45,800 nucleotides of DNA from Chloroflexota bacterium. GTDB lineage: Bacteria; Chloroflexota; Limnocylindria; Limnocylindrales; CSP1-4. A program made the position numbers and the translations under genes. This document shows positions 29,062 to 39,671 of this stretch, piece by piece (positions within the stretch are counted from its first letter, which is position 1; each line of letters starts with the position of its first letter). The notes under the pieces were generated by a model. The model was given only the letters and a program-made list of their open reading frames with translations. It was not told where the DNA came from and did no database searches. Location of the stretch: positions 1 through 45,800 of the forward strand of contig JACQEG010000111.1 of the NCBI GenBank assembly GCA_016200665.1, read 5' to 3'.

Positions 29062-29940
29062 TCAGTGCACCTCGGCCGGCTCGAGCTCCGGGCCCAGCGG
29101 CACGGCGAGCGCCTCGTCGGAGACGTTGGTCTCGAGGCCGGCCTCGCGGAGGATCGGGCCGTAGCCCTCCTCCTCGAGCCGCAGCGCGAGGTCGCGCCCG
29201 CCGGTCTTCACGATCCGGCCCTGGGCCAGGACGTGGACGACGTCTGGCTTGATGTAGTTCAAGAGGCGCTGGTAGTGGGTGATCAGGAGCACGCCGAGGG
29301 TCGGGTTGAGCATCGCGTTGACGCCCTCCGCGACGATCCGCAGGGCATCGATGTCGAGGCCCGAATCGGTCTCGTCGAGGATCGCCATCTCCGGCTCGAG
29401 CATCGCCATCTGGAGCATCTCCAGGCGCTTCTTCTCGCCCCCGGAGAAGCCCTCGTTGACGTAGCGCGTGACGAACGTCTCGTCCATCCGGAGGAGGGCG
29501 AGCTTCTCGCGCATGCGCTTGCGGAAGTCGCCCATCGAGACGCCGCCCCGCATCGAATCGGTGGGATCGACGTCGGTCGTCTTGTCGACCCCCTGGAGCT
29601 TGGCGTTGAGCGCGCTCCGGATGAAGCTCGCGACGCTGAGCCCGGGGATCGCGGTCGGGTACTGGAACGCCAGGAACATCCCGAGCCGGGAGCGCTTGTC
29701 CGGCGACAGCTTCAGGACGTCGCGGCCCTTCCAGGTGATCTTGCCGCCAGTGACGACGTAGCCGGGGTGGCCCATCAGCGCGTAGGCGAGGGTCGTCTTG
29801 CCGGATCCGTTCGGACCCATGATCGCGTGGACCTCGCCCGGCCCGACCTCGAGGTCGATGCCCTGGAGGATCTCGTGCTCGGGCGCGGTGACGGGGGCCA
29901 CCCGCAGGCCGCGGATGACCAGCTGATCGGTGTCGGTCAC
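29062..29940 (-). CDS. sufC: Fe-S cluster assembly ATPase
   Basis: HAIMGPNGSGKT, FLAFQYP, NEGFSGGEKKR, DETDSGLDIDAL and ITHYQRLL motifs. Confidence 0.96.
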   Translation of the reverse strand: MTDTDQLVIRGLRVAPVTAPEHEILQGIDLEVGPGEVHAIMGPNGSGKTTLAYALMGHPGYVVTGGKITWKGRDVLKLSPDKRSRLGMFLAFQYPTAIPGLSVASFIRSALNAKLQGVDKTTDVDPTDSMRGGVSMGDFRKRMREKLALLRMDETFVTRYVNEGFSGGEKKRLEMLQMAMLEPEMAILDETDSGLDIDALRIVAEGVNAMLNPTLGVLLITHYQRLLNYIKPDVVHVLAQGRIVKTGGRDLALRLEEEGYGPILREAGLETNVSDEALAVPLGPELEPAEVH

Positions 29941-30476
29941 GGGTGGGTCAGGACTCCTTCGGGACGGCTGTCGAGGAGGGTCTCGGGCCGGCGCTGCGGC
30001 ACGAGGTCGGCCAGGGTCATGGTCTCGAGCGCGCCCGCGATCGCGTCGCGCACGCGGATCCAGAGGAAGTTCACGGTGCAGGTCGATGTCCGATCGCAGT
30101 TGCTGGCGTGATCCGGATCGTCCGTCGCGCAGATCATCGGCGCGAGTGGCCCCTCCAGGGCCCGCAGGATCTCGCTCATCGGGATCTCGCTCGGCGGCCG
30201 GGTCAGGGCGTAGCCACCGCGGGCGCCGCGGGTCGAGGTCACGAGGCCGGCGTCGCGAAGGACGAATGCGAGCTGCTCGAGGTAGGCCTTGGGGAGATCC
30301 TCCGCCGCCGCGATCTCGGTCAGCGACGACGGACCGGCACCGAAGCGCCGGCCGAGCTGGACCATGAGCCGCACGCCGTATTCGCCCTTCGTGGAGAACG
30401 CGACCGCACCGGTCCCGTGGAACGCCGGGCGGACCGTGTGGATGGGCGGGCTCAGGGTGCGTACAGACGCGGGCAG
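29937..30476 (-). CDS. Rrf2 family transcriptional regulator (IscR/SufR-like, 3 Cys)
   Basis: FSTKGEYG, YLEQL, RGARGGY and C..C..C cluster ligands. Start uncertain: ATG 30530 lies inside the promoter; CTG 30476 follows GAGGA. Confidence 0.9.
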   Translation of the reverse strand: MPASVRTLSPPIHTVRPAFHGTGAVAFSTKGEYGVRLMVQLGRRFGAGPSSLTEIAAAEDLPKAYLEQLAFVLRDAGLVTSTRGARGGYALTRPPSEIPMSEILRALEGPLAPMICATDDPDHASNCDRTSTCTVNFLWIRVRDAIAGALETMTLADLVPQRRPETLLDSRPEGVLTHP

Positions 30477-30485
30477 CGGACGATC

Positions 30486-30516
30486 CTCAATCCCTAGTGA
30501 TTTCGTCGGGATTGAG
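30486..30516. promoter_or_regulatory. Rrf2-type operator (inverted repeat)
   Basis: CTCAATCCC-N13-GGGATTGAG with perfect 9-bp arms, immediately downstream of the -10; resembles IscR/CymR-type boxes. Confidence 0.7.
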
Positions 30517-30543
30517 TCTACGGCCACCATCGTGGAGCGTCAA
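30515..30543 (-). promoter_or_regulatory. Sigma70-type promoter of the rrf2-suf operon
   Basis: TTGACG (30538-30543), a 17-nt spacer, then TAGACT (30515-30520) on the - strand. Confidence 0.75.
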
Positions 30544-30552
30544 CGACCGGGA

Positions 30553-30584
30553 GGGGTAGTAGGTAGGGCGGTCGGAAGTTGCCG
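30553..30584 (+). repeat. Left inverted repeat
   Basis: GGGGTAGTAGGTAGGGCGGTCGGAAGTTGCCG. Confidence 0.8.
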
Positions 30585-30699
30585 ACATCGGCGGCCGCCC
30601 AGCACTGGCGCGAGCCCATTCGTCAGCGCATCCGCTCGGGACGCATAAGCGGACGCGGCGGCGGCGCCCACCCAAGGGTGCGGCCGTCACAGTCACGTC

Positions 30700-31566
30700 C
30701 TACACGGTGATATCCCGGCGACCGAAGACGATGGCGGTCGCCGCAAATTCGGCTGCGATGACCAGGGCGAGCGTGGCGAGAGCCACGGGCACGGGAACCG
30801 GGGCGAAGAACGCTGCCCCACTCATTGACGCGTGATTGCTCCCGGCGGGCGCCCCTGCCGCGAGGAGGGCATTGATGAGCTCTGTCGGCATCCAGCGAGT
30901 GACTTCGGGCGGCAGGCCAACGCTTGGCAGGGTGGCGACGACTGCCCAGGCGCCAACGAAGGAGGCAGCGCTCAGGATCACGGAGCGAACGAGGACGGCG
31001 AAGAGCAGGCCCGTTGCCGCTGCCCACACGTTGACGGCGACCAATGCAGCCAGAGTCCCGATAACGCCGAGATCGAAAGCCTCAGCATCAACATATGGCA
31101 AGAGGCCAAGACCGTGGGCTGCGGGCGGGACGGCAACCCCGACCAGTACGGTGCTCGCGGCCACAAGTCCACTTAGGGCGAGGCCCAGAGCCGCCTTGCC
31201 CACAAGGAGCCGAGGGCGGCTACTGTCCCTCACGAGTCGCGTACGAATCGTTCCCGTGTCGAACTCAGAGGCAACCAGCCAGCAGCTCAGCAGTCCGGTG
31301 CAAACGGCGCCGATAGGAAAGGCGTCCAGAGAAACGCTCCCAACACTTGCCCAAAGCTGATACCCACGCTGCAGGAGGACGACCGGGTCGACGCCCCCCG
31401 CAGGGAGCTCGGGGCCGACTCCCGGCGGCGTCGGGGCTGGGAGTAAGAGGAGCTCACGAGCGAGCAGGATCGGAGTGAGGGCGAGAAGCAGGACAGCAAC
31501 GTCTCGTCGCCTGCGTCCCACACGCCACTCAAAGGCGATCGCCTGCATTGTCCGGGAACGCTTCAT
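30700..31566 (-). CDS. ABC-2 type transporter permease
   Basis: About 6 TM helices and VASEFDTGTIRTRL...R..LLVGK motif; ATG overlaps the ATPase stop. Confidence 0.85.
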   Translation of the reverse strand: MKRSRTMQAIAFEWRVGRRRRDVAVLLLALTPILLARELLLLPAPTPPGVGPELPAGGVDPVVLLQRGYQLWASVGSVSLDAFPIGAVCTGLLSCWLVASEFDTGTIRTRLVRDSSRPRLLVGKAALGLALSGLVAASTVLVGVAVPPAAHGLGLLPYVDAEAFDLGVIGTLAALVAVNVWAAATGLLFAVLVRSVILSAASFVGAWAVVATLPSVGLPPEVTRWMPTELINALLAAGAPAGSNHASMSGAAFFAPVPVPVALATLALVIAAEFAATAIVFGRRDITV

Positions 31567-32468
31567 CGATGACCCCGAGCAGCTCTGAGGAATACCTGTT
31601 CAAGGGACTGGCGCACATGGCGCACCTCAGAGGGATAAAGCCCGGCGGTCGCCAGGAGCCCGACTACTGCTGCTCCATCCTCGGAATGCACCCGAAGCAG
31701 GCGCTGATCTGAGTCGTCGCTCTCCGCCCCGATCATCTGGCCGTTTAGGGCCTCCTTGGCCCTTCTTGCAGCCTCCGGGGAATCGAAGCCAACCTGGAGG
31801 TGTGGACGCTGACGCAGCTGATCCTGCGTGCCCTCCGCGACGACCTTGCCTTCGTGGATGATTACCACGGCATCGGCCAGGGCTTCGATCTCCGGGAGAA
31901 GGTGAGACGACAGGAGGATGGCGACCCCCTCGGCCTTGCGTCTGAGAATGGCCTCACGCACCATGGCAACACCTTCCGGGTCGAGGCTTTCCGTTGGCTC
32001 ATCGAGAACCAGGACGCTGGGCCGCCCGCAAAAGGCGACCGCGACTCCAACCCGCTGGCGCATTCCGGATGACAGCGCTCCCACACGCCTGCGGGCGACG
32101 CCCTCCACCCCGAACTCCTTGAGCAGGCGGTCGGACATGCGCGTGATCGAATCTCCACGTGCTGAAAGTGCGCCGTAGATCGCCACCGTCTCGAGGACCG
32201 TGAGATGCGGGTGCAGCGCGGGGCGGGAAACGAGACCTCCCAGCACACCCGGTTCTGGACGGGAGTTTGCCGCTCCATCGAGGACCCGGACCGATCCGCT
32301 CGTGGGATTGAGCAGGCCAAAGCAGACCCGAATGGCAGTCGTCTTGCCGGCGCCGTTGAGCCCGAGGAGGCCCGTCACGGATCCGGCCTGGACAGCGAAC
32401 GACACCTCGGTGAGGGCGTCGATCATACCGAAGCGCTTCGAGATCCGGTCGAACGCAAGCGCGGTCAT
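31563..32468 (-). CDS. ABC transporter ATP-binding protein (BcrA/peptide-immunity type)
   Basis: GLNGAGKTT, LSSGMRQ, VLDEP and SSHLL motifs. Confidence 0.92.
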   Translation of the reverse strand: MTALAFDRISKRFGMIDALTEVSFAVQAGSVTGLLGLNGAGKTTAIRVCFGLLNPTSGSVRVLDGAANSRPEPGVLGGLVSRPALHPHLTVLETVAIYGALSARGDSITRMSDRLLKEFGVEGVARRRVGALSSGMRQRVGVAVAFCGRPSVLVLDEPTESLDPEGVAMVREAILRRKAEGVAILLSSHLLPEIEALADAVVIIHEGKVVAEGTQDQLRQRPHLQVGFDSPEAARRAKEALNGQMIGAESDDSDQRLLRVHSEDGAAVVGLLATAGLYPSEVRHVRQSLEQVFLRAARGHR

Positions 32469-32479
32469 GGGTCGGCAGA

Positions 32480-32514
32480 GGGCGGACGGGGTTGGAAGGT
32501 ACGCCCGTCCGCCC
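32480..32514 (-). terminator. Hairpin between the secreted-protein gene and the ABC ATPase gene
   Basis: Perfect 11-bp stem GGGCGGACGGG/CCCGTCCGCCC with a 13-nt loop. Confidence 0.55.
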
Positions 32515-32529
32515 GTGGGCCTTTGCTTC

Positions 32530-33003
32530 CTAGACCCGGAACTCTTGGGTGAATAGGTCGCGGACCTGTAGGCCGCAACACACGGTTGTCAGCACCGTGT
32601 GGTTCTGAACGTGATAGAGCCCTCCAGCGATCAGGCCGTATTGCTTGCAGCTACCCGATGTGGGCACCCACATTGCCCACGGACTTGAGTACTTGTCCTT
32701 CGTGCAGCCCGCGATCGGGCCGAGAAAGTCGCTCCAGTGGAAGCAGACGCCACCAACGTCGTAGTCGCAGTGCCCGTAGAACACGGCGATGTAGAGATGA
32801 GTTATGTCTCCAGTGCAGCTGTCGTATGCCTGCGCCCACAGAGCGCCCGAGCCGTACTTCCCCCCAAATTCTGTCTGGTAGCACCCCCCATCAGCGCTGA
32901 CGTTCGCGACCAATGGAGTACCCGGAGCCGCGAAGACGAGAAATGCCGGCAGGCAGAGGACAATGGCCCTCAGCCGTCGCAGGAATCTGCTGTTCCGCAC
33001 CAC
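32530..33003 (-). CDS. Secreted Cys-rich small protein, unknown function
   Basis: Basic N-terminus, hydrophobic stretch and VSA|D cleavage-like site; 8 Cys in the mature part. SD-like GAGGA/GGAG precedes GTG 33003/33000 (ORF track start is 33018). Confidence 0.7.
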   Translation of the reverse strand: MVRNSRFLRRLRAIVLCLPAFLVFAAPGTPLVANVSADGGCYQTEFGGKYGSGALWAQAYDSCTGDITHLYIAVFYGHCDYDVGGVCFHWSDFLGPIAGCTKDKYSSPWAMWVPTSGSCKQYGLIAGGLYHVQNHTVLTTVCCGLQVRDLFTQEFRV

Positions 33004-33117
33004 TTCTCCAATCCTCAATGCTGAGTCTCCGCTGAGTCAGAATGTTGCCTCGGCCCTCCTTCCGTCGCGCGACTGCCCGGTGAGAGGCGCCCACCGACCG
33101 CGCGTTCGACCTCGGTA

Positions 33118-33525
33118 CTACCGGGCCTCCTCGAAAAGGTCCCGGATGCGCGTCTCGAATAGGCCCGCTTTGCGGAGCACCTCGCCTGCGGCGCCCGCGC
33201 TGACACTTAGGGCGACCAACAGGTCGACGGCGCGAGCGGGCCTCTGCTCGGACAAGGCCGCCTCGCCCATCGCTTCGATCAAGGCCTTTGCCTCGGGCCC
33301 GAGCCCAAAGCCGACTGGCCGCGCTCCTTGTCGGGCGAGCGCTGCTTCGACAAGCAGGTCCGGTGCGATTCCAGCCTGAGCTAGCCGCTCCGCGATCGGC
33401 TTGGTCTGGAGCGCGGCGATAAGGAAGTCGGTTGCCTCCACTTGACGTTCGGCCGCGAGCTGGATCGCGACGGCCTCGATCTCGGCAACGCGCGGGTCGT
33501 TGCCGATGAACCGCGTGTGGTCCGT
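33118..33525 (-). CDS. Clp N-terminal (double repeat) domain-like protein; start codon non-canonical or lost
   Basis: Two repeats (VEATDFLIAAL..IAERLAQAGI and ARAVDLLVAL..AGEVLRKAGL). GGAGG lies 6 nt before an in-frame ACG at 33525. Confidence 0.5.
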   Translation of the reverse strand, partial: TDHTRFIGNDPRVAEIEAVAIQLAAERQVEATDFLIAALQTKPIAERLAQAGIAPDLLVEAALARQGARPVGFGLGPEAKALIEAMGEAALSEQRPARAVDLLVALSVSAGAAGEVLRKAGLFETRIRDLFEEAR

Positions 33526-33540
33526 TTCGAGCCTCCTTCC

Positions 33541-33927
33541 TACAATCAATACTTCGCGGGTGGACCAGCGGATATTCGGATCATCCGCGACACCGAAATG
33601 ACATACGCCCAGATGACCGTCGGCCTCTTCGTTTGCCGATCGGCCAAGGTCACCGGCTGGGGCTGTACGACCATCCACCGAGCTGACATTGACTGGCTCG
33701 ATCAGTCAGGAGATCCGCATTGGGGCGTCTGGGAAGTGTCCCACGTCAGTCAGAAGGGTGACAGCGGGGCGGGCTACGTCGCGTTCGAGAGTGACGACAC
33801 GTACGCCAAGCCGGCCGGAATCCTGTTCGGCGGTGACATAGGGCTGGGGGCTCGTTACACCTACTACTACCCGGTCTGGGACGACTGGGCCATCACGGTC
33901 CACGCTTGCGTGACAGCGGCCTGCTAG
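33541..33927 (+). pseudogene. C-terminal fragment of a chymotrypsin-like (S1, alpha-lytic type) serine protease
   Basis: VGLFVCRSAKVTGWGC and GDSGAG catalytic-Ser motif present; no upstream His (TAGHC-type) segment or signal peptide. Confidence 0.6.
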
Positions 33928-33937
33928 GGAGGAGGGT

Positions 33938-34357
33938 TTGATGCGAACCACGGCCATGGCGGTGATCGGCGAGGGGGCCTCGATTGCACTGCAGGCCTGG
34001 TTGGCAGCGTCTGGTGCCCTTGGTCTGTCCGGAGACACGGCCAGCGTCGGAGCCATCTGGCTCGCGATGACCGCGACCGTGGCAATCGCGGTGGCCATCG
34101 GCTCGGTAGGACTTCGGCAATCGTCCAGGAGGCGGACCAGCGGCGCGGTCCTGATCGTAATTGGGGCCGTCGCCGCCTACGCCTGGCCAGTCATCACGGC
34201 CGTCGGGAGCCCGCCGCCGGACTTTCTCGACAAGTGGATCCAGGGACCTGCCCTACCCGTATGGGAGGGCCTGGCCATTCTGGTCGTCGGGGTGGTCCTC
34301 GCGATCCGGAAGTCGAGCCCAAGCGTCACGGTGGATCCGGCAGAGGGAGCAGGCTAG
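33938..34357 (+). CDS. Small integral membrane protein (about 4 TM helices)
   Basis: Strong SD GGAGGAGG and hydrophobic segments; directly follows the protease fragment. Confidence 0.7.
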   Translation: MMRTTAMAVIGEGASIALQAWLAASGALGLSGDTASVGAIWLAMTATVAIAVAIGSVGLRQSSRRRTSGAVLIVIGAVAAYAWPVITAVGSPPPDFLDKWIQGPALPVWEGLAILVVGVVLAIRKSSPSVTVDPAEGAG

Positions 34358-34460
34358 ACCACAAGCGTGGCCGGGCCAGCCAACAGCTTGATCGGGCCAG
34401 CCACACAGCCCCAGGGCCCGTCGAGCCGTCCAGCAGGGTGCCGCCAGGCGACGAGCCGAG

Positions 34461-34492
34461 CGGCAACTTCGGTACGCCCTATCTACTACCCC
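34461..34492 (-). repeat. Right inverted repeat
   Basis: Reverse complement is GGGGTAGTAGATAGGGCGTACCGAAGTTGCCG; contains the EamA stop codon. Confidence 0.8.
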
Positions 34493-35376
34493 GTCAATGA
34501 CCCTGGCCTCGTCGACGGGGCCGTCGGCGAGCCCGGCGCCGGGACTTCCCGCCCGCCGGTCCGCTCGGCGCCGATCCCGGCCACGACGACGCACGCGATG
34601 CCCAGCACGGCGAGCACGTCGGGGACCTGGCTGAGCGCGACGAACCCGATCAGGAGTGCAAACGCTGGCTCGAGGCTCATCAGCGTGCCGAAGGCCGCGG
34701 TCGTCAGCCGCCGGAGGGCGAGGAACTCGAGCGTGTAGGGGATGATCGGCAACAGGATCGCCAGCCCGAGTCCGATCAGCAGCAGCTCCGGGGTCAGCCG
34801 GCCGACCGTGCTCGGCCCGGCCACGATCGTGGCGACCAGCGCCGAAACCGGGATCGAGACGGCGATCGACTTCAGGCCGGCGACCTCGTCGCCAACGTGC
34901 TGGGTCAGGACGATGTACGTGCCCCAGCAGACACCGGCAGCCAGGGCGAAGGCCACGCCGAGGGCGTCCGCAGCGCCGGTCCACGGCTGCGTCAGCAGGA
35001 TGACGCCGACGGCCGCGATCACGGGCCACGCCTTGACGGCCCCGCGACCGCGCGCGACGGCGACACCCAGCGGTCCCAGGAACTCCAGGGCGCTGGCCGT
35101 GCCAAGCGGGAGGCGCGCGATCGAGGCCATGAAGAACAGCGCGGTGCCGGACGTGACGATCCCGAGCGCGACGGTTGCGCGGAACGCGGACGGCGAGAAG
35201 TCCGACGGCCTCGGTCGCACCAGCAGCAGCAGGATCGGGGCGGCCCAGGCCAGGCGCAGCCAGGTCGTGCCCGCGGCGCCCAGATCGTCGAGCAGGTGGA
35301 CGGCGACCGCGAGCCCGAACTGGACGCACAGCATCGACGCGACGGCCATCGACGCGCCAATGCGCGACGCCGACAT
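34486..35376 (-). CDS. EamA/DMT family transporter (RhtA-like)
   Basis: RLPLGTASALEFLGPL, PYTLEFLALRRL and FGTLMSLEPA motifs; about 10 TM helices. Start could be TTG 35406. Confidence 0.9.
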   Translation of the reverse strand: MSASRIGASMAVASMLCVQFGLAVAVHLLDDLGAAGTTWLRLAWAAPILLLLVRPRPSDFSPSAFRATVALGIVTSGTALFFMASIARLPLGTASALEFLGPLGVAVARGRGAVKAWPVIAAVGVILLTQPWTGAADALGVAFALAAGVCWGTYIVLTQHVGDEVAGLKSIAVSIPVSALVATIVAGPSTVGRLTPELLLIGLGLAILLPIIPYTLEFLALRRLTTAAFGTLMSLEPAFALLIGFVALSQVPDVLAVLGIACVVVAGIGAERTGGREVPAPGSPTAPSTRPGSLTG

Positions 35377-35510
35377 CGCGAGTCCGGGTCTGCTGATGGC
35401 GGTCAAGGCCCTAGTACAACGGCTCCGGTCGCCCGCGTCCACCGGACGTTCCGACGCTCGCCTCGGGTCCGGCCGGACGGATCGGACGACTCGTGTGCTA
35501 TCTTCTGCGC

Positions 35511-35771
35511 ATGGCTGTGCGCACGAACCTCCTCCTGCCTGAGGCGCTGGTGGCCGAGGTCGACCGGATCGCCGGGCCTCGAGGTCGGAGTCGATTCGTG
35601 GCCGAGGCCCTCGAAGAGCGCCTCGAACGGGAGCGTCGCCGTGTCGCGGCCCGGGAGGCCGCCGGTGCGTGGCGGGATCACCCCCTGTTTCCGACGTCGC
35701 GCGACGTCGCGGCGTGGGTGCGCGCGGGTCGCGTGGAGCCGGCGAGATCGTCCACGGACGCGAAGGGCTGA
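35511..35771 (+). CDS. Ribbon-helix-helix antitoxin (VapB-like)
   Basis: RTNLLLPEALVAEVD...RSRFVAEAL RHH pattern upstream of a PIN gene; TGcTATCTT lies 6 nt before the ATG. Confidence 0.8.
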   Translation: MAVRTNLLLPEALVAEVDRIAGPRGRSRFVAEALEERLERERRRVAAREAAGAWRDHPLFPTSRDVAAWVRAGRVEPARSSTDAKG

Positions 35772-36234: not shown

Positions 36235-36966
36235 ATGCCTGGCCTCCGCCATCGACGTCGGGCGACGTACCTGTTGCGATTGATCCTGGCCGGCCTGGTG
36301 GCGACGCTGGCAGTCGCGGCCTGCGGGCCCAGCGACGGGTCGGCGACGCCGGGCATCGGCCGGGCGTCCGGCGAGCCGACCGAGCGGCCGATCGCGACGG
36401 TGCCGGCGGATCCCACCCTCGCGGCGGCGGTCGGGCCGTGGCGGCGCGTCCCGGCCAAGGCGGATCCCGCGTTCGGCGCCACGTTCGTCGCGGGCTGCCG
36501 CGCCGCGGAGGCGGCCATCGGCTCGATGCCGGCCAGGGTCGTCGACGTGCGCGGCCGAGGCTGGATCACCGTGCTGCTCGCCTCCGACACGGCGGCGTTC
36601 CTGTGCCGGACGACCGTGGACGACCCGGCACACCCCGTCGAGATCCGGTCGGTCACCGTCCCGAGCGCCACCATCGCCACCGACCAGATCGACCTCGCGC
36701 TCTGGACGCAGGTCCGGATCTCGCCCGAGACGATCACCTATGCCGTCGGGCGGGTCGGACCGGAGCCCGCGGATGTCATCGGTGGCTACGTCGACCAGAC
36801 CTTCGTCTTCGCGACGCACGAGAACGGCTGGTGGGTCGCGTGGTGGCCACCGCAGGCCGCATCGGACGGCTTCGCCGCGGTCGACCACGGTCATGTCGTG
36901 CTGAACGAGGTCAAGGCGCCCGCCAGCGGCGAGTTCCCGGACGCTTCGGCGGGCGCGTCGCCCTAG
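36235..36966 (+). CDS. Hypothetical lipoprotein
   Basis: Basic N-terminus, hydrophobic stretch and lipobox VAAC; Pro/Ser-rich linker. Confidence 0.65.
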   Translation: MPGLRHRRRATYLLRLILAGLVATLAVAACGPSDGSATPGIGRASGEPTERPIATVPADPTLAAAVGPWRRVPAKADPAFGATFVAGCRAAEAAIGSMPARVVDVRGRGWITVLLASDTAAFLCRTTVDDPAHPVEIRSVTVPSATIATDQIDLALWTQVRISPETITYAVGRVGPEPADVIGGYVDQTFVFATHENGWWVAWWPPQAASDGFAAVDHGHVVLNEVKAPASGEFPDASAGASP

Positions 36967-39671
36967 GGTGAACCGGCGGGCGCCGCGGGACGCGCGGAGG
37001 CCGCAACCGGGGTCGGGCCGGGCATCGCCAGGACGGTTGCCACGAGATCCTCGACGGCGGTGTCGGCGCCGATCGACATGAGCTCGGCCGCCCGCTCCGT
37101 GCCGAGCTTCTCGGCCGCCGTCGCCACCGGATCGGGCAGGTGGAGCACCTTGACCGGGGCGAGCATCACGGTCTTCTCGCGGACGAGCCTGTCGGTCGCT
37201 CCGGCGAACCGCGCCCCGAGCTCCGGATCGCCGTACTCGAGCTCGATGATCGCGGCCATGCCGAGGGCGCGGGCGAGGCCCGACGCGTTGTCGTTCGCGG
37301 CGAAGAATCGCAGCCCTTCCTGCATGCGCTGCCACGCGCGCTCGGGCTCACCGACCCGGTAGCCGATCGCCGATTGGAGGGTCTGGCTGTCCGCGACCTG
37401 GTAGGCCGCGCCGGCCCGCGTGAAGGCCTCGAGGTTCTGTCCCTCGAGCTCCCTCGCCCTGGCGTAGTCGCCGCCGAGGAAGACGCCGAGGACGAGCGCC
37501 TGGCGGGCGCGGTTCATCCCCTCCTCGTGGCTCGCCTGCGTGTAGAGGTCGAGGGCGAGCTGCTCGTGCTCCCGGACGCCCGGCACGTTGCCGCTCACGA
37601 CCGACATGAACCCCAGGTCGTAGTGGGCGTCGGCGACGAGAACCGGGTCGGCGATGCGCTCGGCGAGGGCAAGTCGCTCCTCGTAGGCGGCCGTCGCCGG
37701 CTCGAAGTCGTTCATCCAGTAGGCCAGCCCGCCCTCGGCGACGAGCCCGGCGATGCGCACTCGCGGATCGCCGGGCGAGGGCAGCGCCAGCAGCGGGGCC
37801 AGGAGCGCGCGGCCCTCCCGCAGCCGGCCACGCTGCTGGAACCAGCGCCACGTGGCGCCCATGACGCGGAGCCCGGTCGCCGGATCGGCCGCGGCAGTCG
37901 AGCGGGCGAGGACCGCGCGGAGGTTGTGGTCCTCGCGGTCGAAGCGCCGGATGGCAGCCTGCCCGCCGGCGACGAGGAGGACCTTGCCGAGCGACTCCGC
38001 GAGCTCGACGAAGACCGCCGAGTGGCGCGCCTCGGCGGCGGCCTGTTCGCCCGCGGCATCGAGGCGCTCCAGGGCGTACTCGCGCAGCAGCGGGTGCATC
38101 CCGAATCGCATCTCGACCGCATCGCCGTGATCCTCGGCCGGGGGCGCCTCCAGCCGGATCAGGCTCTTGTCCGCGAGGGATCCGAGGCCGTCCAGCAGGT
38201 CCATCCCGAGGTCGGCATCTGCGTCGGCCACGGCCTCCGCGGCCTCGACCGTCCAGCCGCCGGCGAACACCGCGAGTCGTCGAAAGAGCCGCCGCTCCGG
38301 CTCGCTGAGCAGGTCGTGGCTCCAGTCGATCGCCCCGCGGAGCGTCCGCTGGCGCTCCGGGACGTCACGGGCGCCGCCCGCGAGATCGAGGCTGCGGGCG
38401 AGGCGCTCGAGGATCTGCGACGGGCTGAGGAGTCGCACCCGTGCAGCCGCGAGCTCGATCGCCAGCGGCAGCCCGCCGAGGCGCTCGCAGATCTCGCGGA
38501 TCGCCCGATTCGCCTCGTCGTTGAGGGCCAGGTCCGGCCGGTGGGCGCGGGCCCGGTCCTCGAACAGGCGGACCCCGGCGCCCAGGTCCAGGGGCGGGAC
38601 GACGTAGCCCTGCTCGCCGGCGATCCGGAGGAGCTCGCGGCTCGTCACGACGATCCGGAGGTTCCGCGCGTCGCGAACCAGCCGCGCCACGCCATCCGCG
38701 GCGTCGGGCAGGAGCTGCTCGAGGTTGTCGACGACGAGCAGCGCGACCCGGTCGCGGAGGTGCGTCCGGAGCGCATCGGCGATCGGTCGCTCGGCCGATT
38801 CGCGGACGCCCAGGGCCGTCGCGATCGACGGCTCGAGCAGCGCGGCGTCGCGTACCGCCGCGAGATCGACGAACCAGACGCCGTGCGGGAAGCTCCGCCG
38901 CACCTCGTGGGCGAGCGCCAGCGCGAGGCGGGTCTTGCCGCTCCCGCCGGGCCCGGTCAGCGTCAGGATCCGGCTGCCGCCGAGGAGCCCGCGAAGGCGC
39001 TCCAGCTCCGATCCGCGGCCGACGAACGCCGTGACCTCGCCCGGCAGGTTCGACGGCACCTCGGTCGTGCGCAGCGCCCGGGCGTCATCGGCGGCGCCCG
39101 GCACGACCAGCCGGCACAGGCGCAGCGGCTCGTCGAAGTCCTTGACCGCCCGGAGGCCGTCGTCGACGAGCTCCGCGTCGCGGAGGTCCTCGGGCCGCTC
39201 GCCCGCCGGCGCGTCGAGCACCACCCCGACAACCTTCGCGAGCGTGTCCGAGACGACGACCTGGCGGCCATTGCCGGCGGCCGCGATCCGCGCCGCGTAG
39301 TTGACGTCGATCCCGACGTAGTCCTCCGGCGCCCCCTCGGCAAGCCCCTGGCGGAGGCGCCCCTCGCCGAGGTGGAGTCCCATCCGGACCTGGATCGGAG
39401 CGTCGGCCGGCCACGGCTCGGTGGCGAGCGCGCGCTGCGCCGCCGCTGCGGCCACGAGCGCATCGAGGGGTCGGCTGAAGGCCGCGAAGAACGCGTCGCC
39501 CTCGGTCTTGACGACGACCCCACCGTGGCCCTCGATCGCGGCTCGGAGGAGCTCGTCATGGCGAGCCACGATGCCCGCCCACGCGGCGGCGCCCACTGCC
39601 CGCTCGAGGCGCGTGGAGCCCTCGATGTCGGTGAACAGGAAGGTGACGGACGCACCGATCGGGAGACGCAT
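36963..39671 (-). CDS. Class III adenylate/guanylate cyclase domain + STAND (NB-ARC-like) ATPase + helical TPR-like region
   Basis: FLFTDIEGST, KTEGDAF, VRMGLH and VNYAARI (cyclase); GPGGSGKT, VDNLEQ and GLPLAIELAA (STAND). Confidence 0.9.
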   Translation of the reverse strand: MRLPIGASVTFLFTDIEGSTRLERAVGAAAWAGIVARHDELLRAAIEGHGGVVVKTEGDAFFAAFSRPLDALVAAAAAQRALATEPWPADAPIQVRMGLHLGEGRLRQGLAEGAPEDYVGIDVNYAARIAAAGNGRQVVVSDTLAKVVGVVLDAPAGERPEDLRDAELVDDGLRAVKDFDEPLRLCRLVVPGAADDARALRTTEVPSNLPGEVTAFVGRGSELERLRGLLGGSRILTLTGPGGSGKTRLALALAHEVRRSFPHGVWFVDLAAVRDAALLEPSIATALGVRESAERPIADALRTHLRDRVALLVVDNLEQLLPDAADGVARLVRDARNLRIVVTSRELLRIAGEQGYVVPPLDLGAGVRLFEDRARAHRPDLALNDEANRAIREICERLGGLPLAIELAAARVRLLSPSQILERLARSLDLAGGARDVPERQRTLRGAIDWSHDLLSEPERRLFRRLAVFAGGWTVEAAEAVADADADLGMDLLDGLGSLADKSLIRLEAPPAEDHGDAVEMRFGMHPLLREYALERLDAAGEQAAAEARHSAVFVELAESLGKVLLVAGGQAAIRRFDREDHNLRAVLARSTAAADPATGLRVMGATWRWFQQRGRLREGRALLAPLLALPSPGDPRVRIAGLVAEGGLAYWMNDFEPATAAYEERLALAERIADPVLVADAHYDLGFMSVVSGNVPGVREHEQLALDLYTQASHEEGMNRARQALVLGVFLGGDYARARELEGQNLEAFTRAGAAYQVADSQTLQSAIGYRVGEPERAWQRMQEGLRFFAANDNASGLARALGMAAIIELEYGDPELGARFAGATDRLVREKTVMLAPVKVLHLPDPVATAAEKLGTERAAELMSIGADTAVEDLVATVLAMPGPTPVAASARPAAPAGSP

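Follow-up and report, generated by a model that had tools for sequence, protein, structure and literature searches.

Casposons are integrated by a Cas1-family enzyme, the casposase, and carry their own family-B DNA polymerase (PolB). They were described as Cas1-solo self-synthesizing transposons (Krupovic et al. 2014, PMC4046053). According to the part of PMC4779613 drawn on here, all bacterial (family 3) casposons are reported in intergenic regions. The PolB_CDTDS group, which includes a casposon polymerase, is named after the CDTDS motif C (excerpt of PMC7544198). A synthetic mini-casposon, composed of a target-site duplication (TSD), a terminal inverted repeat (TIR), cargo, a second TIR and a second TSD, was integrated in M. 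mazei via the proteins of a chromosomal casposon, as given in the excerpt of PMC10359463. This integration makes mobilisation in trans possible in principle.

Units that encode no enzyme themselves, but have recognisable ends, carry passenger genes and rely on an enzyme supplied from outside, are known as mobile insertion cassettes, MITEs of insertion sequences (IS) and integron cassettes. Here, we describe a 3.9-kb gene cassette in a window of 45,800 nt (the whole stretch of DNA analysed) from a Chloroflexota genome. In our view, it very probably derives from a casposon, as a non-autonomous form with cargo only.

Structure of the cassette ends

The cassette occupies positions 30553-34492 of the window (3.94 kb) and is bounded by 32-nt inverted arms, which are complementary at 28 of 32 positions (88%), as the earlier note had reported. 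The coordinates of all features are listed in Table 1, in which the TIR scores derive from a matrix of 31 distinct TIRs with a maximum of 55.4 bits. An 18-nt core pattern, allowing up to three mismatches, matches the window twice against 0.05 matches expected, and this number was reached in none of 100 dinucleotide-preserving shuffles of the window. The 32-mer is built of a conserved stretch of 16 nt, a variable stretch of 6-8 nt and a conserved stretch of 10 nt, which are mutually unrelated.

Each arm is abutted on its outer side by a 14-nt direct repeat, the two copies of which are identical at 10 of 14 positions. Five of these matches constitute the GTCAA shared by the targets of the family, with which the right flank opens directly after the arm, while the other nine positions match at five. 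This direct repeat had been missed in the earlier note. The eamA ORF ends at the first TAG of the right TIR (34486-34488). Contigs from other samples of the same study span the cassette junctions without differences, namely 30356-32123 in run X2 and 34393-34568 in run X3. As both junctions are thereby covered, the structure is not an assembly artefact of one sample.

Table 1 Features of the cassette and its flanks in the window.
Feature	Position	Strand	Remarks
Hairpin CTCAATCCC-N13-GGGATTGAG	30486..30516	-	overlaps rrf2 -10 box
Host rrf2 promoter	30515..30543	-	-35 TTGACG 30538-30543; 17-nt spacer; -10 TAGACT 30515-30520
Left TSD copy, GTCAACGACCGGGA	30539..30552	+	opens with 5 nt complementary to the -35 box
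Left TIR	30553..30584	+	GGGG end outward; 49.4 of possible 55.4 bits
ABC-2-type permease, 288 aa	30700..31566	-	PF12679 E 4e-4, below Pfam cut-off; GC3 0.71
ABC transporter ATPase, 301 aa	31563..32468	-	PF00005 E 1.5e-25; GC3 0.73
Cys/Gly/Tyr-rich protein, 162 aa	32530..33018	-	hydrophobic N-terminus; no family
ORF, at most 186 aa	33118..33678	-	no family; overlaps opposite-strand ORF
ORF, 161 aa	33442..33927	+	GDSGAG motif; no Pfam match
Hydrophobic membrane-type protein, 139 aa	33938..34357	+	GC3 0.79
Right TIR	34461..34492	-	GGGG end outward; 49.8 of 55.4 bits
Right TSD copy, GTCAATGACCCTGG	34493..34506	+	within 3' end of eamA ORF

Cargo genes and base composition

The cargo consists of a foreign ABC-2 exporter pair and four small ORFs without known family. 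PADLOC matches to the ATPase are confined to its generic ATPase part. The Cys/Gly/Tyr-rich protein is probably secreted, and no match to it was found in Pfam or PADLOC. Overlap with the next ORF, on the opposite strand, leaves the true start of the ORF of at most 186 aa uncertain. In the 161-aa ORF, the GDSGAG motif could, on a weak reading, mark the C-terminal half of a trypsin-type protease. The third-codon-position G+C (GC3) of the cargo, at 0.71-0.79, is unlike that of both host genes and casposon core genes. Outside the repeats it amounts to 0.86-0.97 (sufS and sufC 0.97, rrf2 0.86, eamA 0.92), and the shift falls at the TIRs, which bears out the lower-GC block seen earlier between the repeats.

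The cassette was also said to encode no transposase, integrase or resolvase, and Pfam searches (10 ORFs, and 8 ORFs at E <= 1) indeed revealed no such domain, nor did they detect a Cas1 domain in the cassette ORFs. Without enzyme genes, the cassette could move only with outside help. No Cas1 was found in the genome of the window (G000), the assembly of which is 82% complete. The interior holds no stub of a core gene and no tblastx HSP of at least 50 bits to four large elements. We found no second copy of it in 65 other species of the genus and no relatives in the metagenome scan, so nothing shows that the window cassette ever moved as a unit.

Insertion at the rrf2-sufC-sufS promoter

Insertion by this family duplicates 14 bp starting at a host promoter's -35 box, most often in the promoter of the rrf2-sufC-sufS operon. 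In the window, this promoter points away from the cassette. The hairpin overlapping its -10 box is conserved in the rrf2 upstream region at 13 of the 28 genus loci matching the regular expression; it is probably the Rrf2 operator, and would as such belong to the host and not to the element. A TIR stands upstream of the orthologous operon in 10 genomes (G000, G013, G021, G025, G073, G213, G239, G345, G420 and G427). Two relatives, G034 and G124, keep GTCAA-N9 at the rrf2 site and have no TIR there, thus providing the empty site that the earlier note had proposed to look for. TANNNT follows TTGACN at a distance of 16-19 nt in 12 of 14 GTCAA-type TIR flanks, compared to 4.5% of shuffled flanks.

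Large relatives encoding Cas1

A search for the repeat in relatives, likewise suggested earlier, uncovered paired copies that flank variable cargo and, in places, the mobilising enzyme Cas1. Two sister species harbor large elements with the same 32-mer ends, GGGG outward: G239:C1 458594-474243 (15.65 kb), with a TSD identical at 14/14 positions, and G427:C120 8561-26161 (17.6 kb), with a TSD of 15/15. Like the window cassette, both lie at the rrf2-sufC-sufS promoter, 14 bp outside its -35 box (TTGACG). Each contains a 520-aa protein matching the Cas1 family PF01867 (E 1.3e-39 and 4.4e-45, respectively). Among solved structures, it comes closest to 4n06 (1.4e-19) and to the M. mazei casposase 6opm (7e-19). 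In the alignment, E, H, D and E are retained at the positions of solved Cas1, and they are conserved in four of the five Cas1 copies of the genus.

A conserved core protein of roughly 1000 aa, also encoded by these two elements and with 213 homologues, is a putative family-B DNA polymerase. This assignment is based on weak Pfam matches in homologues (PF03175 in 14 of 28 aligned members, best E 1.6e-7) and on the invariant columns DxE, NxxxD, YxxxD, DxxSMYP, KxxxNxxYG and CDTDS. The genus member itself has no Pfam match, and nothing was found among solved structures by profile or sequence search. A PolB profile was positive beside the Cas1 gene in all five Cas1-bearing genomes, serving as a positive control, and its search of the window and of G000 (82% complete) was empty. 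Among 10 proteins scanned with Pfam from three Cas1-bearing loci, no other transposase or recombinase domain was found, and an NCBIfam test for another recombinase gave an IS21 HTH part as its sole match (E 0.036). Cas1 is the only enzyme linked to TIRs in the Cas1-bearing loci scanned. Judged from sequence, the 32-bp repeats of the window are the TIRs of a casposon family present in the genus.

Small units and tandem arrays

Inverted pairs of the repeat are oriented GGGG-outward in 7/7 cases in the genus and in 9/9 cases in metagenome loci. Neither Cas1 nor PolB is present in five of the seven genus pairs and in all nine metagenome pairs (0.9-9.2 kb). These make up 14 natural cargo-only units, of which six have a perfect TSD (14/14 in G420, L111, L143, L144, L149 and L170) and, on this sequence criterion, look freshly integrated. 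The 14 small elements have unrelated interiors, which speaks against the amplification of a single non-autonomous element. Stubs persist in some of them, a Cas1 C-terminal stub in G025:C2 and an accessory core gene in L107, and favor decay in place as at least one route. Ends also stand back to back, exactly 14 nt apart, at three metagenome junctions (L121, L139 and L156), and tandem arrays with a 14-nt spacer occur in G025:C2, G428:C177, the right flank of G427 and the left flank of G239.

Alternative explanations

The two arms of the window might survive from two casposon insertions at one hotspot, for instance adjacent members of a tandem array, with the intervening DNA left over from deletions or acquired later. 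We regard such a chimera as improbable, even though tandem arrays with a shared 14-nt spacer exist in the family, the window's two 14-mers differ at four positions, and G000 contains two further solo TIRs followed by low-GC3 genes (C63:74096 and C71:30526). The window arms are in the canonical GGGG-outward arrangement, and GTCAA stands directly after the right arm, as expected of a direct duplication. The central 8-10 nt vary between left and right TIR even where the TSD is perfect (G420, G427 and G239), so the four arm mismatches are no argument for two origins. Far less credible still is a host cis-regulatory site for an activator or repressor, situated just upstream of -35 boxes and by chance found twice, inverted, around acquired genes. 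Its appeal lies in the 14 of 33 motif instances that lie 9 nt from TTGAC, 12 of these 14 with a properly spaced -10 box, and in the regulators rrf2, tetR and arsR among the genes neighbouring TIRs. The motif is, however, absent from the orthologous rrf2 promoters of G034 and G124, and a copy with at most one mismatch is present in only 14 of 65 other genus genomes. In nine instances, TTGAC abuts the motif and no promoter follows, a mirrored arrangement that the opposite end of an insertion should show, and the right arm of the window falls within the 3' end of eamA, a place with nothing to regulate. Moreover, the motif bounds elements with Cas1 and PolB that have perfect direct duplications, and these TSDs refute a regulatory origin.

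Two further readings take up leads of the earlier note, and we attach almost no probability to either. The first is a mobile insertion cassette that stems from the Tn3 family or another IS and is moved by a DDE transposase. Tn3-family ends start with GGGG, as do those of the cassette, and cassettes that have IS-type ends but lack a transposase are known. Yet Tn3-family elements have inverted repeats of about 38 bp with TAAG at their end, duplicate 5 bp and encode a Tn3-type DDE transposase. The family described here has duplications of 14-15 bp, and the window arms show neither a 5-bp duplication nor TAAG at the inner end (positions 35-38), the lack of both Tn3 hallmarks having been correctly noted before. 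In neither the cassette ORFs nor the 10 proteins scanned from three Cas1-bearing loci was a transposase domain found, and in these loci the enzyme partnering the ends is Cas1. A module between inverted site-specific recombination sites, either an invertible segment or of Xer/dif type, would account for inverted sites with no recombinase inside, as in dif modules. Such modules are characterized by a two-arm dyad core, a recombinase, and alternative orientations or excision. By contrast, the 32-mer has no dyad-symmetric two-arm core, and the units are flanked by direct 14-bp duplications and include Cas1 and PolB elements with these same ends. The check for inversion or excision proved negative: contigs of four runs show one orientation, without an inverted form or an excision joint, a weak test given that rare forms are invisible in contigs.

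Discussion

The reading of the cassette as a cargo-only casposon derivative retains the earlier idea of a non-autonomous unit mobilised in trans, which was right in kind, and replaces the affinities suggested for it, which were wrong. A casposase would have bound both TIRs, cut with a 14-bp stagger at GTCAA-N9 and joined the 3' ends of the element, and gap repair would then have made the duplication. As the -35 box is part of the duplicated segment, its copy on the rrf2 side would remain attached to the -10 box, and the host promoter would survive. Arrival as a small TIR-bounded cassette moved by the casposase of another element and origin by internal deletion from one full casposon or from a tandem pair appear about equally probable. 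With a TSD of 10/14, five positions of which are the shared GTCAA, a single integration event is unproven for the window copy. The four TSD mismatches, together with the lack of a casposase in the genome, suggest that the cassette is now immobile.

We tentatively raise, as a rather doubtful extension, that the casposase of this lineage is the engine of a gene-cassette system beyond moving its own transposon, with trans-integrated units stacked at -35 boxes. Such a system would comprise short TIR-bounded cargo units without Cas1 or PolB, with array members separated by a 14-bp repeat. If true, integron cassette arrays and the hypothetical proto-CRISPR array would both have a living counterpart in it, and the window cassette would be a captured unit, the delivering casposase of which has since been lost from the genome or was never resident.

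Integron cassettes likewise pile up next to a promoter, whereas the window family has neither an attC-like folded site nor an integron integrase. Unlike IS mobile insertion cassettes and MITEs, the window cassette has ends that match Cas1 and PolB elements and not an IS, and its duplication is 14 bp. With casposons, the full relatives of the window share Cas1 with catalytic-type residues, PolB, TIRs, TSDs and the absence of any other recombinase found, while the window unit itself has no Cas1 and no PolB. Casposons also have TSDs of a length specific to each family, reuse target sites, form tandem arrays around a common TSD and leave solo TIRs; the last three features are all seen in the family described here. 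Their polymerase displays the CDTDS motif C of the PolB_CDTDS group (excerpt of PMC7544198). Their intergenic insertion is shared with family 3 casposons, a likeness by description and not by Cas1 phylogeny, and the Chloroflexota lineage is absent from the casposon hosts named in the excerpts used here. In the excerpt of PMC4779613, the archaeal M. mazei family 2 casposons show a 14-bp TSD with a conserved motif at one end, CGCA there and GTCAA here, and differ from the window family in TIR and TSD sequences. The literature searched contained no natural cargo-only casposon, no targeting of -35 boxes and no casposon from this lineage. The family is not wholly undescribed, as had been thought possible: the superfamily is that of the casposons, and what is new against this literature is the lineage, the target choice and the cargo-only derivatives. 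The mini-casposon of PMC10359463 (excerpt) has the same layout as the window cassette, without Cas1 or PolB; it was built in the laboratory and its mobilisation in trans was shown, whereas the units described here are natural and their mobilisation in trans is what we infer.

The inverted repeats bound a compositionally distinct cassette

The inverted repeat proposed in the earlier note is real and lies where it was placed. Its two arms (terminal inverted repeats, TIRs) of 32 nt each are complementary at 28 of 32 positions, and an 18-nt core pattern matches twice in the window against 0.05 matches expected, with none of 100 shuffles giving two. The lower-GC block described between the repeats is equally borne out: the ORFs enclosed by the arms have a GC3 of 0.71-0.79, compared with 0.97 in sufS and sufC, 0.86 in rrf2 and 0.92 in eamA outside them, and the change in composition coincides with the repeats. 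Besides an ABC-2-type permease and an ABC ATPase, the cassette contains four more ORFs without family, among them one of membrane type and a Cys-rich one whose N-terminus is hydrophobic. As the note had it, the cassette ORFs showed no domain of a transposase, integrase or resolvase. PADLOC returned only generic ATPase matches for the cargo and no defence system. The TIR outer end, GGGG-TAG-TAG-N-TAG in all copies, places stops in two frames reading inward. The eamA ORF reads through the right duplication and ends at the first TAG of the right TIR.

Features of the cassette and its surroundings in the window
Feature	Position	Strand	Remark
Hairpin	30486-30516		CTCAATCCC...GGGATTGAG
-10 box	30515-30520		TAGACT
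-35 box	30538-30543		TTGACG
Left target copy	30539-30552		GTCAACGACCGGGA
Left TIR arm	30553-30584		
ABC-2-type permease	30700-31566	minus	cassette interior
ABC ATPase	31563-32468	minus	cassette interior
Right TIR arm	34461-34492		
TIR outer end	34486-34492		stops in two frames
Right target copy	34493-34506		GTCAATGACCCTGG
VapB/RHH-like small ORF	35493-35771		right of eamA
Adenylate-cyclase-STAND ATPase protein	36963-39671		902 aa

In the study that produced the assembly, two further samples have contigs that span the left and right junctions with no differences, so the structure is not an assembly artefact of one sample. The contigs of a second sample, run X2, end no more than about 200 nt from the left arm and 7-11 nt beyond the right arm (30342-30356 and 34499-34503), which could reflect branching of the assembly graph at the repeat or polymorphism in the population. 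No joint matching excision (30538/30552 to 34493/34507) was found in the contigs of four runs. A joint from 29125 to 34497 was rejected as an excision form, as it has one side of 21 nt and does not fit the arm ends.

The repeat recurs in the genome and genus, with variants beyond

The assembly holding the window (G000; 2.37 Mb, 175 contigs, 82% complete) carries exactly four 32-mers by fuzzy search and position matrix, namely the window pair and one copy on each of two further contigs. The matrix, built from 31 distinct copies, gave no score between 12 and 45 bits in this genome, and similarity among copies ends abruptly at 32 nt. The two further copies (C63:74096-74127 and C71:30526-30557; loci L005 and L010) are solo TIRs with no partner arm, each with two or three low-GC3 genes (0.70-0.77) on its inner side. 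The gene ending 1 nt before the C63 copy is presumably glycine-dehydrogenase-like, going by visual inspection of the peptide at its C-terminus.

At least one copy with no more than one mismatch at the 20 specified positions is present in 14 of the 65 other species of the genus, amounting to 31 places in 15 genomes with G000 counted. Matches with three mismatches were discarded because a reversed-pattern control was also positive in 19 genomes. A search of 401 genomes of the order found 33-nt TIR variants, with the conserved blocks one base further apart, at five places in four genera of the family; together with two further records carrying the variant, from Chloroflexia and Limnocylindrales MAGs, these indicate an element family wider than the genus. 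The variant sites lie in G147, G256, G264, G238 and G213 (L025-L029), and in loci L023 and L024.

Cas1 and a family-B polymerase lie between the same ends

The genus contains seven inverted TIR pairs, all with GGGG ends outward.

Inverted TIR pairs of the genus (G, genome; C, contig) and identity of their flanks
Genome	Pair length (kb)	Flank identity
G000 (window)	3.9	10/14
G025:C2	3.7	12/13
G420	3.5	14/14
G248	1.8	8/12
G213	2.3	10/12
G239	15.65	14/14
G427	17.6	15/15

In both G239 and G427 the pair encloses a gene for a 520-aa protein that matches Pfam Cas1 (E 1.3e-39 and 4.4e-45), and a third Cas1 adjoins a TIR in G428. Among solved proteins, an archaeal Cas1, 4n06 (1.4e-19), and the casposase of Methanosarcina mazei, 6opm (7e-19), come closest. 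Glu, His, Asp and Glu are kept at the positions aligned with conserved acidic or His residues of 4n06/6opm; they are retained by four of the five genus Cas1 copies, the fifth (G033) being divergent and 50% identical, and form a putative catalytic tetrad, assigned after PMC4046053.

Adjoining Cas1 is a conserved protein, about 1000 aa long, with 213 homologues. The genus protein has no Pfam or NCBIfam match, and no solved structure was found for it by sequence or profile. Its affiliation comes from its relatives: precomputed PF03175 (organellar/viral family-B polymerase) is present in 11 of the best 120 of the 213 homologues, and 14 of 28 aligned members match this family (best E 1.6e-7). The invariant columns correspond to the exonuclease/polymerase motifs DxE, NxxxD, YxxxD, DxxSMYP, KxxxNxxYG and CDTDS. 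The profile of this polymerase (PolB) matches beside Cas1 in all five Cas1-bearing genomes and in none of the five holding only small pairs, G000 included. G427 and G073 have an intact gene, and in G239 and G428 it is split into frames; the G239 locus contains no CRISPR-like array. Cas1, PolB and TIRs are given as the defining set of casposons in PMC4046053, and the full relatives behave as casposons in every test run.

The Cas1+PolB elements of G239 and G073 (L054 2641-8580; L060/L099) also carry type I restriction-modification genes directly inside one TIR, taken as hsdS, hsdM and hsdR from their peptides, with copies up to 80% identical. A Methylase_S fragment (PF01420, E 1.8e-7) closes the small G420 unit; that this HsdS fragment is shared with the restriction-modification genes carried in G239 and G073 was considered and found unsupported by tblastx at a 50-bit floor.

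Elements insert at a promoter -35 box

Five of the ten matching positions in the window duplication are the GTCAA common to the family's targets. Among 33 distinct TIR instances compared with their flanks, GTCAA lies exactly 14 nt outside the arm in 14, and its complement TTGAC abuts the arm in nine, as would be expected, in mirror image, where a direct duplication flanks the opposite end; the remaining ten show mostly one-base offsets or one-base variants. Where elements neighbour each other they abut, with one 14-mer in common between their ends. TANNNT follows TTGAC after 16-19 nt in 12 of 14 flanks versus 4.5% in shuffled sequence, many of these flanks being orthologous, and so non-independent, rrf2 promoters. 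In the window, the two boxes are separated by a 17-nt spacer and the promoter is directed into rrf2-sufC-sufS. A perfect hairpin with a 9-bp stem, kept across the genus, overlaps the -10 box of rrf2; it is probably an autoregulatory Rrf2 operator of the suf operon.

Ten genomes have a TIR at this position in front of the orthologous rrf2 operon; in G427 and G239 it belongs to a Cas1+PolB element. In G034 and G124, GTCAA-N9 is followed by unrelated sequence, which marks an empty site. TIRs also recur at sites in front of a tetR gene and an arsR gene. A reading of the 32-mer with GTCAA-N9 as a promoter-side regulator site was dropped given the Cas1+PolB elements and the target-site duplications. 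The ABC-transporter block beside the suf operon is cargo that was gained horizontally and lies in a casposon hotspot. In L088 (G033:C23), a second, divergent casposon type is present at this rrf2 site, with a Cas1 only 46-50% identical and PolB nearby; the sequence 14 nt beyond GTCAA, GGGTTCAGGTACAGG..., resembles the 32-mer only loosely, and G090 has another GGGGTA-starting sequence there.

As the far side of the empty site, eamA was rejected, since no orthologue lies beside rrf2 in relatives; its matches at E<=1e-40 occur in 4 of 65 genomes, at no more than 49% identity and all located elsewhere. The small ORF right of eamA resembles VapB/RHH proteins with a sub-threshold Pfam match (PF09957, E 4e-4). 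Further to the right comes the STAND ATPase gene, whose orthologue forms the far edge of the variable region beside rrf2 in G013 and adjoins a TIR in G345.

Cargo-only units: possible insertion as such and decay in place

A metagenome scan for the 32-mer pattern yielded at least 120 stretches, 80 of which were examined as loci. Nine contain a GGGG-outward pair of 0.9-9.2 kb, and all nine lack matches to Cas1 and PolB (E<=1e-8), a cargo-only proportion biased by short metagenome contigs, which favour small elements. The duplication is 14/14 in five of these pairs and 12/14 in one, and in three further loci back-to-back ends stand exactly 14 nt apart. Five genus and nine metagenome units thus make fourteen without the enzymes, six with perfect duplications.

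Their interiors have nothing in common pairwise at 50 bits or more by tblastx, a floor set against the low-score HSPs typical of high-GC DNA. The cassette DNA has no relative in the 65 genus genomes beyond ABC ATPase motifs, nor did a metagenome scan with the permease find one. The GC3 of the cargo differs from that of the casposon core genes (0.82-0.93) and is also unlike the host.

By the proposed mechanism, a casposase would bind the TIRs, cut the target with a 14-bp stagger from GTCAA and join the ends, and repair would then yield the duplication (after PMC4046053, PMC4779613 and PMC10359463). Because the -35 box lies inside the duplicated segment, the rrf2-side copy would still be joined to its -10 box. 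PMC10359463 describes a laboratory-built unit, laid out as the window cassette, that integrated in M. mazei via the proteins of the resident casposon; by analogy, this makes movement of small units in trans plausible. The six perfect duplications around cargo-only units, and the lack of core-gene stubs in most such units, argue that small units can insert as such. Decay in place as a further route is argued for by the C-terminal part of Cas1 left in G025:C2, an accessory core gene left in locus L107, and the lack of an amplified cargo-only family; either route may account for the window copy. Marginal matches of 50-56 bits to the polymerase region were seen in G420 and L111, and no core-gene stub in the window interior at the 50-bit floor. 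Cas1 and PolB are absent from the cassette and from the assembled G000, which is 82% complete, and the worn duplication and missing casposase suggest that the window copy is now a fossil.

Classification and comparison with known casposons

Casposons have been found chiefly in archaea and in only a few bacteria, and are thought to be ancestral to the CRISPR adaptation machinery. With neither enzyme found, the window unit is more aptly named a non-autonomous derivative than a casposon. With its first alternative, that of a non-autonomous unit mobilised in trans, the earlier note was right in kind; its Tn3 and dif leads were wrong. The genus family is a variant of the already known casposon superfamily; the nearest described group is probably bacterial casposon family 3, to which intergenic insertion and the CDTDS-type polymerase point, the latter as outlined in PMC7544198.

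Three features appear to be novel: naturally occurring units that have casposon ends but only cargo inside, many of them flanked by perfect 14-bp duplications; precise targeting of the -35 box that would leave the host promoter working; and arrays of units spaced by a fixed 14-bp repeat. The searchable literature yielded no natural cargo-only casposon units, no -35-box targeting and no casposons in this lineage, and supplementary TIR and duplication lists may include such elements. If the small units truly move in trans, Cas1 enzymes would spread accessory genes much like integrons, here transporters in the window and restriction-modification systems in relatives, and the step from transposon end to repeat-spacer array would become open to experiment. 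With the Methanosarcina casposons as portrayed in PMC4779613, the genus family has in common a 14-base target-site duplication that bears a conserved motif at one end, tandem arrays whose members share the duplication, and solo TIRs.
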